From the NCBI GenBank assembly GCA_043799545.1, contig JAZDNO010000030.1, forward strand, positions 1 through 64,000: 64,000 nucleotides of DNA, in the 5' to 3' direction. This stretch comes from Methanobacteriota archaeon (GTDB lineage: Archaea > Thermoplasmatota > Thermoplasmata > SG8-5 > DAIRED01). Below are positions 53,969 to 58,407 of the stretch, in pieces; within the stretch, counting starts at the first letter, position 1, and each line of letters begins with the position of its first letter. Position numbers and translations under genes: made by a program. The notes beneath the pieces are model-generated. The model saw only the letters and a program-made list of their open reading frames with translations. It did no database searches and was not told where the DNA came from.

Positions 53969-55297
53969 ATGAAAGTGCTGCTGGTGTACCCGCCGTTCTG
54001 CGCCCCCACGGTGCCTCCTTACTCGATAACATATCTTCAGTCGTTCTTGTCCGCGAATTCCGACGTGGATGTAAAATGCATCGATTTGAACGCGAAATTC
54101 CATATGTGTAGAATGGCATCCTTGTACAACGGCCTGGAAAAAGCGAAAAGGAATTTAAAATCATATTCCGAACTGCTTGAAAAGTACTCCAGCAAGGCAA
54201 AGAAGGTTCACAGGGAAAACATCGTGAAAATATCCGAGGGAGCAGCGCCCGAACTATTCAAGGAGCTGGCTGGGCTGCTTCTGAAAGAAAAGCCCGATGT
54301 GGTCGGGTTCAGCATCGTTTACAACAGCCAAATATTCTACAGCCTGTCGCTCATCGAGAAGCTCACCGATAATGGAATTACTTGCGTGGCCGGCGGCCCC
54401 GCCGCGAGCCAACTTGTTCGAGAGCGGGTGAAGGTGCTGGATGACGAGGTCGCGCTCCTGAGATTCCTGACCAAAAAGGAAAAATGCAAGGCACCCCGCG
54501 CTCTGGATTTCAGCCACTACCCGGAAGAAGACTATCTTTCAAAAGAGATGATATACCCCATCAGAAGCTCGTATGGCTGCTTCTACCGGGCATGCGCTTT
54601 CTGCACCCATCACGGCAACGTTGCCTACAGGGAAATCGATGTGAAAGAAATCAAAAAGTCTATTCTTAAAAACAGGATGAAAAACATTTTCTTCATCGAT
54701 GACACGATTCCTGCGAGAAGACTTTCCGAGCTCGCGGACATGCTCAAGCCGCTTAAAGTACGGTGGTGGTGCCAAACCCGGCCCACGCAAGACCTGCTCG
54801 GGCTTTTCAACAAGCTGAGGGAAACCGGGCTGGTGGCAATCTCTTTCGGCGCCGAGTCAGGAAACCAGAGGATGCTGGACCTGATGAGAAAAGGCACGAG
54901 AGTGGATGACGTCAAAAAAGTACTCTCTGAGAGCCACAATGCCGGCATAAAAAACATAGTTTTCATAATGTTCGGATTTCCGGGAGAAGACGAATCCTCT
55001 TTCATCGACACGGTGAATTTCCTCAGGGACAACCGCGGGAACCTCGACATCGTATCGGCTTCCATGTTCGGCCTGCAGAAAGGAAGCTGCGTCTTTGACA
55101 ATCCAGGCGAGTTCGGGGTGTTCGACATTATGGAACATGGCGCGCCGCTTGGCGAAATCATCCGGTTTGAGGTCAGAAACGGGCTCGGTGAAAAACAGGC
55201 AAAGGCAATGAAAGAAAATGTTGCGAAGGAGCTGAGGGCGATGAACAAGCTTCCCAAGATATTCTGCCTGTTGAAAGAACAGAGTTTGTTTTTTTAG
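53969..55297 (+). CDS. Cobalamin-binding radical SAM protein; AT-richer gene
   Basis: N-terminal B12-binding-like region (VYPPF, DVVGFSI), YGCFYRACAFC cluster motif, FGAESG, MFGFPGE. Confidence 0.88.
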   Translation: MKVLLVYPPFCAPTVPPYSITYLQSFLSANSDVDVKCIDLNAKFHMCRMASLYNGLEKAKRNLKSYSELLEKYSSKAKKVHRENIVKISEGAAPELFKELAGLLLKEKPDVVGFSIVYNSQIFYSLSLIEKLTDNGITCVAGGPAASQLVRERVKVLDDEVALLRFLTKKEKCKAPRALDFSHYPEEDYLSKEMIYPIRSSYGCFYRACAFCTHHGNVAYREIDVKEIKKSILKNRMKNIFFIDDTIPARRLSELADMLKPLKVRWWCQTRPTQDLLGLFNKLRETGLVAISFGAESGNQRMLDLMRKGTRVDDVKKVLSESHNAGIKNIVFIMFGFPGEDESSFIDTVNFLRDNRGNLDIVSASMFGLQKGSCVFDNPGEFGVFDIMEHGAPLGEIIRFEVRNGLGEKQAKAMKENVAKELRAMNKLPKIFCLLKEQSLFF

Positions 55298-55387
55298 CTT
55301 TCAAACCCATTCTTGCGGAGTTCCTCGCAGGAGGCCGAAATCAAAGCCCCGACGTTCAGTTATGCTCCGCCAGAGAAGCTAGGAATC

Positions 55388-55398
55388 AAAAAGAAAAA
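55388..55398 (-). terminator. Oligo-T terminator of the C/D sRNA
   Basis: TTTTTCTTTTT immediately 3' of the terminal stem on the minus strand. Confidence 0.6.
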
Positions 55399-55527
55399 CC
55401 TGCGTCCTCAGCACTCATGGGGTCAATCATCCGGCCTTAGCCCGCGAACCGAAGTCCGCAGCGTGGTTCCAGACCTTCGGGGTCGAAACCGCCGTCATCT
55501 GACCCTCTTGTCATCACAGAACAAAGG
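55399..55527 (-). ncRNA. Box C/D guide sRNA with extended D'-C' insert
   Basis: Box C GUGAUGA 55517-55511; 12-nt guide; D' AUGA 55498-55495; C' AUGAUUG 55430-55424; 12-nt guide; box D CUGA 55411-55408; 9-bp terminal stem; upstream TTTTATTA (55552-55545) and downstream T-tract. Confidence 0.85.
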
Positions 55528-55574
55528 CGTATCCGCGCACAAGATAATAAAATGCACCTTTCCGAGTAGTGGTA

Positions 55575-55836
55575 ATGTTTATCTACACCTGCTCACCTAC
55601 GCCACAATGGTGGAACCTTGTTCCGCGACATCATTGGGTTCGCGTCCGACGACCCGGCATATTCGATCGCGCAGTTCAGGGCCGACATTAGTCAGTCGAC
55701 GGCAGTCGTCGAGACGTTCGACGCCGCTGCGGTGCCATACCTGACCAGCATCATGAACGCGGGCGACTTCTTCTTCCCGGGCCGGGGATACTGGGTCTGG
55801 GTCCCGACGGACGTCGTGTGGGACAAGCCCTTCTGA
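55575..55836 (+). pseudogene. Remnant of the C-terminal domain of a surface protein
   Basis: The 72-aa ORF IIGFASD...VETFDAAAVPYL...PGRGYWVWVPTDVVW resembles the C-terminal domain of large Thermoplasmata surface proteins. A WNLV motif lies in another frame just upstream, and there is no signal peptide or convincing start. Confidence 0.45.
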
Positions 55837-55889: not shown

Positions 55890-58311
55890 ATGCAGATTCC
55901 CAGCGGCAAGATATTGGCGACGTCTTTCGGAGGGCCCAAGGCGTTCGCGGAGGCCTTTGCCAGGATGAGCTCGGAATCTCTGGACGGGTTCGTGAGGACC
56001 TCGCTGGCGAGCAGGAAGGGTTACGCGATTGGAACGCTGGTCTTCAAGGGTGGCAGGGCCATCCTGGTCGCGCACAAGACAGCCGGGCATGAAACCCTAG
56101 GCGACGATGCCGTCCCGCTCGTGGCAGCAGATTCTCTCTCCGAGGATTGCGTCATGGAGATTCACACTTACGGCTTCAAATCATCCAGCATCAGCGTAGG
56201 GCACCTCGAGACCCGGTTTTCCGACGCCGCAGTCACCTACGACATCGACCCTGCGGAGGAGGTCAGGGGCGCGGAAAAGGCCACGAGCGAGGAGGCCGAG
56301 AAGTCCCGGAGCGCCGCCTCGATAGACCGTATGCGCGACGCGGGAATCGAATCCAGGGAGCGCGAGCTGGCCGAGAAGAAGCGACTGCTCGACGAAGAGC
56401 GCCAGCGTTCAGCCGAGCGCGAGGGCTCCATAGAGCGGTTGAGGCAGGAGCTCGACTCCGTAAAAGCGGGAAGCGTCTCTCTTTTCAAGCATTTCACAGA
56501 AGACCGAAAGGGGCTCACCCAGCAGGACGTCCTCGCTCTCGCGGACAAGCGCGTGGAGGAGATGCGCCTCGACTCGAAGCGCGAAGAGCTCGACAAGCGC
56601 GAGAAGGTGTTGAAATCCGAGGAGGCCACCCTGAGGGAGCTGGAAGGCCAGCTGTCTGCCAAGGACGGCTCGATGCGCGAGCGAGAGGCCTCCATCCGAA
56701 CCGAGGAGAGCGCACTGGCCAGGGAGCGCGCCGAACTCGCAGAGCTATGGAAGCGCATAGGCCAGGAGACGGAGAAGCACAAGTCTTCCGAGGAGGAGCT
56801 GGAGCGCAGGCTCGAGGAGTACCTCGTCAAGGAGCGGAAGCTGCTGAAGCTCGAGGACGGCCTGGAATCCCGCGAGGCCGAGATGAAGTCCGCGCAGGCG
56901 AGCCTGGAGAAGGGAGCCAAAGCCCTCGAGGCGAAACTGGATGACGTTTCAAAGCGCGATGCCAAATTGACTGAGCGCGAGAAGGCGCAGACTGACGGCG
57001 AGCGCCAGGCCAAGGCAAAGGCCAAGGAGCTGGCGAAACTCGAAACATCATTGAAGAAGGAGTCGGACGCGGTCGAAAGGGAGAAGCGCCGCGCAGCTTC
57101 CGAGCTGGCCGAGCTGAACGCCCTCAAATCCGAGCTCGAGAAGGGCCGCGAGCGGCTGGAGGCGGACGAGTCGTCTCTTGCGGAGGAGCGAGACTCAGTT
57201 GCGGAGAAAGGCAGGGAATTGAAGGAGCGCGAGGAGAGCATCGGGGAGCTCCAGGCGGCGATGGCGTCGGAGAAGGCCGCGCTGAAGTCCATGTCGAAGG
57301 ACATCGCCAAGCAGGCCAAGGCCATAGAATCCGAGAGGCGCTCGCTGGACGACTGGCGCGCCGAGATGGACAAGGCCGAGGCCGTGGCGGAGAAGCTCAA
57401 GCGCGAGATGGCGCACCGGGAGAAGGGACTGAAGAAGGCCGAGAAGTCCGCAGAGAAGGCGGAAGAGAGGCTGGCCGCGGAGATGGAAACCGTAGCGAAG
57501 CTCCAGGAGGAGCTCGGCGCGAAGGCCCAGAGCCTATCCGACCGCGAGGAGGACCTGAAGGACCGGGAGGAGCAGGCCGCCTTGCGCGAAAAGGAGCTCG
57601 ACGATTCGATTTCGAAAGCCAAAACGTCAATCGCCAAGGACAAGTCGAAGCTGGCGGAGCAGCTCAAGGAGCTGGCTTCTCGCGAGGACGCGCTGTCGGA
57701 CGGCGAGGACGCGCTCGAGAAGCGCGCGGGAGAACTGAACGCGAGGGAGAAGTCCCTCTCGTCCGAGGCCGCGGCCAACGAGGCGAAGGCGTCGGAGCTG
57801 GCGGCCCGGAGCGAAGAGCTCGACGAGCGCGCGGAGTCGCTGGACGCTCGTGAGAAGGAGTCTGAGGCGTCGGCGGCGCGGAGGGAGCAGCAGTTCGCGG
57901 AGCGCAAGGAGGACCTGGACAAGCGGTCCAAGGAGCTGGCTTCCGCGCAGCGCAAGGCCCAGTCCGAGCTGAAGAAGCTCCAGGAGAAGGAGTCGCAGCT
58001 GGCGGCGAAGGAAACCGGCGTGAAGAAGGAGTTCGCGGCCGTACTCAGGGAGCGCGAGGAAATTGACGGGGCGCGGGCCGAGCTCGACGAGCGAGAGACC
58101 CAGTTGAAGGACGCCCCAGGACAAGCTCAAGGCGCGCGAATGGCAGCTCGAGAAGATGGAGAAGGAAATCCGCGTCGAGGCCGAGGGGAAGCTCGCGGAG
58201 CGCGCGAGGGAGCTCGACGAGCGCGAGGAAGCCATCGAGAAGGCGGAGAGCGCGTACAAGAAGCGCCAGAGCGACCTGGCGAAGCTGCGGGAAGGGCTAA
58301 AGGGATTGTAA
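55890..58311 (+). CDS. DUF2226-like N-terminal domain plus very long coiled coil; +1 frameshift at the C run 58114-58117
   Basis: MQIPSGK...GFVRTSL...GTLVFKGGRAIL...CVMEIHTY, then ~650 aa of E/K/R/A heptads. Removing one C restores DAQDKLKAREWQLEK...REGLKGL* (TAA 58309-58311). Confidence 0.8.
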
Positions 58312-58407
58312 CAGTCTGGGCTTCGCAAGAGCCCGGGGTCAGGCGGCTCCCGGGATACGTATAAATATTGACTCAAACGTTGACGGGCAAGCGCGCGGGG
58401 ATTTGAA

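Follow-up and report, generated by a model that had tools for sequence, protein, structure and literature searches.

Archaeal box C/D guide RNAs for elongator tRNA-Met have been described as a family. Additional file 5 of Grosjean et al. 2008 (PMC2584109) gives a duplex of CACU-Cm-AUAggg with GUGAGUAUCCC and lists 17 homologous sRNAs with the guide (G/A)CCCUAUGAG(U/C)N, from haloarchaea, Methanosarcinales, Thermococcales, Methanothermobacter, and Methanocaldococcus. The H. volcanii sR-tMet (Joardar et al. 2011) is the Cm34 guide as it is cited in PMC4033218 and PMC2584109, and the P. abyssi sequence in the PMC2584109 table matches the consensus of the Rfam family sR41 (RF01126). On 23S rRNA, Neq sR20 of Nanoarchaeum equitans guides Cm1920 in helix 69 (H69), a modification confirmed by mass spectrometry and RiboMeth-seq (PMC5389701), so that C1920 is a known archaeal target site. 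The usual length of archaeal sRNAs is 50-70 nt, and eukaryotic C/D RNAs range from 50 to 300 nt (PMC7994747).

The window analysed here, a stretch of 64,000 nucleotides from an organism represented by a 31-contig assembly, contains on its minus strand, at about 55528-55398, a complete box C/D sRNA that can be read directly from the sequence and has a predicted length of about 125-130 nt. It is located in a gap of about 590 nt between a radical-SAM gene (53969-55297, plus strand) and an ORF of 824 amino acids (55890-58364, plus strand), which is divergent from the sRNA and for which no Pfam family was found. A plus-strand ORF overlapping the sRNA (55313-55744) was rejected as spurious, as it has no Pfam family and its similarity to relatives is confined to the sRNA halves. 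The features of the locus are as follows.

55552-55544, minus strand: TATA-like element TTTTATTAT, a putative promoter element
55528-55518, minus strand: 5' strand of the terminal stem, GCCUUUGUUCU, pairing with 55407-55398; its last U is the k-turn loop nucleotide L1
55517-55511, minus strand: C box GUGAUGA, part of the orthologue search pattern
55510-55499, minus strand: D' guide CAAGAGGGUCAG, 12 nt, assigned from the sequence and from pairing with 23S rRNA
55498-55495, minus strand: D' box AUGA, whose A pairs with the U at position 6 of C'
55494-55431, minus strand: insert of 64 nt, predicted to form a three-way junction
55494-55491 with 55435-55432, minus strand: closing stem of the insert, CGGC/GCCG, predicted fold
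55490-55465, minus strand: insert hairpin 1, GGUUUCGACC-CCGAA-GGUC(U)GGAACC, predicted fold with loop CCGAA
55461-55442, minus strand: insert hairpin 2, CUGCGGAC-UUCG-GUUCGCGG, predicted fold with loop UUCG
55430-55424, minus strand: C' box AUGAUUG
55423-55412, minus strand: D guide ACCCCAUGAGUG, 12 nt, assigned from the sequence and from pairing with pre-tRNA-Met
55411-55408, minus strand: D box CUGA
55407-55398, minus strand: 3' strand of the terminal stem, GGACGCAGGU, pairing with GCCUUUGUUCU
55398-55388, minus strand: T5CT5 tract, a likely archaeal terminator, termination being suggested by the oligo-T tract alone

As in archaeal C/D RNAs, a C box of the form RUGAUGA and a CUGA D box are joined through a terminal stem k-turn, and internal D' and C' boxes accompany two guides. 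The flanks GCCUUUGUUCU and GGACGCAGGU pair in k-turn register over five contiguous pairs, one mismatch, and four further pairs, and one unpaired nucleotide separates the terminal stem from the C box, as this register requires. Each guide is complementary to an rRNA or tRNA with its N+5 position on the target nucleotide. A short D'-C' k-loop and a total length of about 50-70 nt, which also belong to the archaeal type, were not found, the spacer being 64 nt and the RNA about 125-130 nt. The 3' end of the TATA-like element lies 26 nt upstream of the C box, which places the predicted transcription start a few nucleotides upstream of that box; in several orthologues an A/T-rich element is present 17-25 nt upstream of the C box. 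The initial annotation, made from the letters of the window, had described a complete C/D architecture with its own TATA element, terminal stem, and T-tract and with two guides of exactly 12 nt, and all of these elements are indeed there.

Genes for fibrillarin, Nop5, and the L7Ae family were all detected in the genome, with matches to PF01269, PF01798, and PF01248 above the cut-offs. The fibrillarin and Nop5 genes, which are adjacent in most archaea, are located here on separate contigs (G000:C18:90354-91001 and G000:C31:22703-23347). A search of the whole window against Rfam at gathering thresholds yielded no match, and a permissive scan of 55200-55800 gave only sub-threshold hits to the guide halves, namely sR46 (15.4 bits), sR20 (15.1 bits), and sR41 (14.7 bits, the gathering score of this family being 54 bits). 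The weak sR41 match is explained by the agreement of the P. abyssi tMet sRNA with the sR41 consensus; these Rfam models are built on Pyrococcus sequences alone, so that a miss says little. Another box C/D sRNA, canonical in all its parts, is located about 1.5 kb past the window end (minus strand of G000:C29, about 65450-65518); it reads AUGAUGA, an 11-nt guide, CUGA, UAAA, GUGAUGA, a 12-nt guide, and CUGA within a terminal stem GCCAC/GUGGC. Eleven of the 12 positions of its D guide are complementary to 23S UUCGCCCAUUAA, immediately 3' of the A-loop, and by our count N+5 falls on about E. coli C2558.

For the D' guide, positions +2 to +11 form 10 contiguous Watson-Crick pairs with UGACCCUCUU in the genome's own 23S rRNA (contig C30), with a duplex energy of -17.3 kcal/mol. 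The site is unique within the 23S rRNA, and no comparable site was found in the genome's 16S rRNA. The surrounding sequence, GGGGUAACUAUGACCCUCUUAAGG, is that of helix 69, and in E. coli numbering the guide pairs with U1917-U1926 and places N+5 opposite C1920. This assignment was counted from the conserved UAACUAU as E. coli 1911-1917, in agreement with the equivalences that PMC2584109 gives for 1915 and 1917. The proposal that the D' guide is complementary to H69 with D'+5 on C1920, made in the initial annotation, therefore holds in the organism's own rRNA. The 16S gene (G000:C30:50457-51924) and the 23S gene (G000:C30:100323-103173) lie about 50 kb apart on one contig and are thus unlinked; the 23S gene runs off the contig end, with about 52 nt missing at its 5' end. 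Unlinked rRNA genes have been described for Thermoplasma.

The D guide finds its target in a tRNA precursor. Using the Rfam tRNA model, an intron-containing tRNA was located at G000:C13:21076-21185, whose sequence ...GUCGGA-CUCAUA|GGGAUU... is that of elongator tRNA-Met with an intron after position 37. Complementarity of the guide ACCCCAUGAGUG covers A31-U36 and the initial GGG of the intron, and C34 faces N+5. The guide fits the family motif NCCCUAUGAG(U/C)N, which immediately precedes box D, except that +8 is C in place of U. This C is mismatched with A37, so that the duplex comprises 9 bp split into 6+3 bp; relatives with CCCUAUGAGUG form 10 bp. The calculated energy is -13.0 kcal/mol here versus -17.8 kcal/mol in G001, a relative of the same genus. 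In the assembled sequence, this copy alone has C at +8 (55416), the position being U in all 88 other class orthologues and in the 17 published species. Given the C-A37 mismatch, guidance of Cm34 may be weakened, and it is perhaps less efficient in the source organism. The CUCAUA|GGG exon-intron junction is also present in the five relatives checked (G001, G038, G058, G135, and G255); no covariation between guide and intron was detected among these six genomes, in all of which the intron begins with GGG, and the D-guide variants across them pair less or through G-U.

A scan of the tRNAs called by ARAGORN without introns gave no target for the D guide, a misleading result because the real target includes the intron. 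Near-perfect complements found in a genome-wide search at C1:37820 and C28:43638 are not tRNAs and were treated as chance. In five relatives, the exact complement CACTCATAGGG occurs in the sRNA gene of each and additionally at G034:C8, G004:C44, and G024:C28. Only one CAU-anticodon tRNA was called by ARAGORN across the assembly, and a further, low-scoring tRNA match at G000:C24:15642-15709 (minus strand; 31.6 bits, 68 nt) combines a CAU anticodon and an initiator-like GGG/CCC stem below it with an aberrant 5' half. At least three intron-containing tRNAs were found in the genome. The tRNA genes at G000:C15:18633-18741 and G000:C15:50455-50569, each about 110 nt and apparently intron-containing, are separated by 32 kb and differ little in their acceptor stems.

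The two guides are partly complementary to each other (GGGUCA/UGACCC), as had been noticed at the outset. The complementarity is real, but it follows from the two target sequences, which dictate it, and the conformational switch that had been proposed on its basis is not needed.

We then turned to the distribution of the RNA in the class of the source organism, for which the initial annotation used the name Thermoplasmata. A BLAST search with the 129 nt against 40 relatives revealed that both halves are conserved with very different spacings between them. A strict pattern, which fixed the C box and the ten pairing positions of the D' guide and left two D' guide end positions free, recovered both guides and the box arrangement in 89 of 401 class genomes, and the reversed-pattern control recovered none. 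This conserved arrangement of boxes and guides goes far beyond chance and bears out the initial identification as a box C/D sRNA. Among the 72 copies that were fetched and parsed individually, the D' guide varies only at the two free, non-pairing end positions, and the D guide varies mainly at +12. The pair between D' position 1 and C' position 6 covaries across these 72 orthologues, with C-G in 59, A-U in 10, G-C in two, and one exception, and the C' variant AUGAUUG accompanies D' AUGA in the other orthologues of the AUGA type. The A-U combination seen here, first read as a compensatory change, is accordingly one state of a covarying family pair.

Stems are conserved as pairing rather than as sequence. 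A terminal stem of at least 4 bp in k-turn register is present in 35 of the 72 orthologues versus 6.2 expected (maximum 13 in 1000 partner permutations), and the stems differ in sequence yet pair across orthologues. Between D' and C', a closing stem of at least 3 bp that starts directly after D' and ends one nucleotide before C' was found in 31 of 53 unique spacers of 9-23 nt, versus 2.6 in shuffled spacers (maximum 8). A stem-closed C'/D' motif, predicted from this pairing to be a true k-turn, is thus a common trait of the class family.

When the D' guide was left free in a looser pattern, the tRNA-Met guide proved constant and the D' guide was replaced or degraded in several class lineages. 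With these patterns, no matches were found in the large families f13 and f20, and the looser pattern matched one of 33 genomes in f9, also a large family. Synteny connects the locus to G001 through the radical-SAM neighbour (67% protein identity) and to G011 and G034 through the 824-aa ORF, homologues of which (31-37% identity over the N-terminal 270-370 aa) adjoin the orthologous sRNA in these two genomes, indicating a neighbourhood conserved across families. The pre-tRNA-Met of G001 is 99% identical to that of the source genome.

The feature that sets this copy apart is the 64-nt insert between D' and C'. Spacer lengths, calculated as the matched length minus 44 and parsed directly for 72 copies, are 3-21 nt in 87 of the 89 orthologues; the exceptions are the 64 nt seen here and 83 nt in G021. 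The insert doubles the usual length of an archaeal sRNA (50-70 nt, PMC7994747). Folded alone, it adopts a predicted Y shape at -29.9 kcal/mol (z -1.85 versus shuffles), a fold in which we place modest confidence. After the closing stem and before C', the unpaired G at 55431 takes the place of the k-turn nucleotide L1, which gives full k-turn geometry, and the earlier view that the insert closes a complete internal k-turn is borne out by the register of the CGGC/GCCG stem. Only two points of the earlier anatomy need correction: the insert measures 64 nt instead of about 63, and the small GGU-UUCG-ACC hairpin becomes part of hairpin 1, which is longer than had been described.

Conservation of the insert, for which a search in related genomes had been suggested, was not found. 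At the orthologous locus of G001, the same-genus syntenic orthologue, the spacer is a 17-nt hairpin, CGCGC-CCGAA-GCGCG-AG, and the insert therefore arose after the split of the two species. The 7-mer CCCGAAG is common to the G001 spacer and insert hairpin 1, with a chance probability that we estimate at about 0.04; this hints that hairpin 1 may descend from the ancestral hairpin, the remainder having been added 3' of it. No second copy of the insert was found in the genome, and no similarity to Rfam in a permissive scan. A repeat or mobile element was considered and rejected, since the insert is single-copy and its short matches in relatives fall in coding sequence and look like chance.

A scan for spacers of 54-84 nt in one genome for each of 185,579 species, a set in which records near the source genome may not be represented, returned only the contig DAOVAY010000022.1 of G021, and two metagenome scans for large spacers, with the same reservation about records near the source genome, returned no match. 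The G021 sRNA (L013:1500-1650; G021:C101:18055-18181) comes from a MAG labelled Methanobacteriota archaeon and has D' ACGA and C' AUGAGUG. Its 83-nt insert likewise folds into a predicted Y shape (-28.9 kcal/mol, z -2.61), and no similarity to the insert studied here was detected (local alignment score 12 versus a shuffle mean of 12.8).

These observations leave several ways of reading the locus, two of which start from the substitution in the D guide. The initial annotation had tentatively aimed this guide at a 16S segment around h23, and the segment UACUCCAGGGGU does pair 5+5 with it; at -14.3 kcal/mol the duplex is comparable to the weakened tRNA duplex, and the +8 C supplies a C-G pair where relatives would have U-G, as if the guide had been re-aimed there. 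The mismatches, however, are adjacent, at +6 and +7, directly beside the N+5 nucleotide. Because box C/D guides require pairing around the target nucleotide, methylation at this site is unlikely, and since in all relatives this guide is conserved as the one for tRNA-Met, directed at C34 of the precursor, we rejected the 16S rRNA as its target and regard such a re-aiming as highly improbable. The substitution could also be taken together with the insertion as signs of relaxed selection, in a decaying gene that has lost one or both guide functions: no other of the 89 pattern matches (72 tabulated) has C at D-guide +8, the tRNA-Met duplex is weakened, and this copy is one of only two with a large insert. 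We give little credence to decay, as none of the four boxes is damaged and all have functional-looking counterparts in relatives, the D' guide retains 10 of 10 pairs, the TATA-like and T-tract signals are present, and the insertion has left both stems, the terminal one and that closing C'/D', in place together with the k-turn register.

Other readings concern the insert itself. It might be a functional module, a docking site for protein or RNA or an element for RNP assembly or stability, which arose convergently in two lineages. In favour of this, both large inserts (64 nt here, 83 nt in G021) occupy precisely the D'-C' interval, both are predicted to be Y-shaped (z -1.85 and -2.61) and to close with a stem that keeps the k-turn register, and the present one contains a C-UUCG-G tetraloop hairpin. 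Such a module is nevertheless unlikely, being missing in the same-genus syntenic orthologue and in 87 of 89 family members; the two inserts are without common sequence, neither an Rfam match nor another genomic copy exists, the two metagenome scans gave no further example and the 185,579-species scan only the other MAG, and comparable folding is frequent in GC-rich sequences of 64-83 nt. A more specific form of the idea, in which the modelled three-way junction would be an accessory domain on the C'/D' k-turn, convergent with that of G021, that recruits a protein, anchors the RNP at a complex processing pre-rRNA or pre-tRNA, or favours one guide over the other, is unlikely in our view. Finally, the insert might be an intron-like element removed after transcription, restoring a short D'-C' loop, in a genome that uses bulge-helix-bulge (BHB) splicing for its at least three intron-containing tRNAs. 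A BHB motif suited to excise the insert was not found by brute-force search, the one weak match cutting inside the C' box, so that this reading is almost certainly wrong.

We consider it very probable that the RNA is the class orthologue of the sR-tMet/Pyrococcus sR41 C/D guide, carrying two guides, and that the insert is a lineage-specific hairpin expansion. From the computed anatomy, complementarities, conservation, covariation, and synteny, we infer the following course of events. The RNA would be transcribed from its own TATA-type promoter and end at the oligo-T tract. The C and D boxes with the terminal stem would form one k-turn, and D' and C' with the CGGC/GCCG stem a second, full k-turn; L7Ae would bind both, and Nop5-fibrillarin would assemble there. 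Pairing of the D' guide with 23S 1917-1926 would direct 2'-O-methylation of C1920 in helix 69, and pairing of the D guide with elongator pre-tRNA-Met, across the anticodon loop and the start of the intron, would direct Cm34 formation before splicing. The RNA is most likely part of a working dual-guide sRNP making Cm1920 and Cm34. Like the terminal stem, the 64-nt Y-shaped insert would point outwards from the RNP core, here as an extension of the C-stem of the internal k-turn. It is most likely neutral or mildly stabilising and not a separate functional module, the sole argument for neutrality being that it is not conserved.

Neither the RNA family nor its two target sites nor the chemistry is new; Rfam and the 2008 table (PMC2584109) contain no member from this class and no RNA that combines these two guides. 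The main result is therefore a correct annotation, that of a dual-guide RNA of the sR-tMet type, by which wobble methylation of tRNA-Met would be linked with methylation of 23S helix 69 across many lineages of the class. It seems that 60-80 nt can be added to an archaeal C/D sRNA where its C'/D' k-turn has its apex, and the insert, a modest curiosity, offers a natural test case for what an sRNP tolerates there. Were the accessory-domain reading true, it would represent an archaeal counterpart of the accessory domains of eukaryotic snoRNAs.

Compared with the known systems, the RNA shares with sR-tMet/sR41 the D guide (G/A)CCCUAUGAG(U/C)N, the duplex with elongator pre-tRNA-Met (CACU-C34-AUA plus the beginning of the intron, C34 being at N+5), and an independent (exonic) gene; the haloarchaeal sR-tMet homologues also have an enlarged D'-C' spacer, of 19-21 nt. 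It differs in its 64-nt spacer with a predicted three-way junction, in its D' AUGA and C' AUGAUUG boxes, and in the substitution at guide +8. In the listed sR-tMet species, the D' guides are unrelated to the one found here, which is directed at 23S C1920, and the sR-tMet list of PMC2584109 has no members from the class of the source organism. Eukaryotic C/D snoRNAs with internal stems are similar in that C' and D' are joined by an internal stem and the length exceeds 100 nt, but they use Snu13, whereas the RNA described here is of the archaeal L7Ae type with symmetric 12-nt guides, so that the resemblance is architectural only. In bacteria, the protein TlyA methylates the same site to the identical product, Cm1920 in H69, but it is a stand-alone 2'-O-methyltransferase that acts without a guide RNA and by an unrelated mechanism. 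Neq sR20 (PMC5389701) is likewise a box C/D sRNA directing Cm1920 in 23S helix 69, and its second guide targets Gm1530 of the 16S rRNA, whereas that of the present RNA is directed at tRNA-Met.
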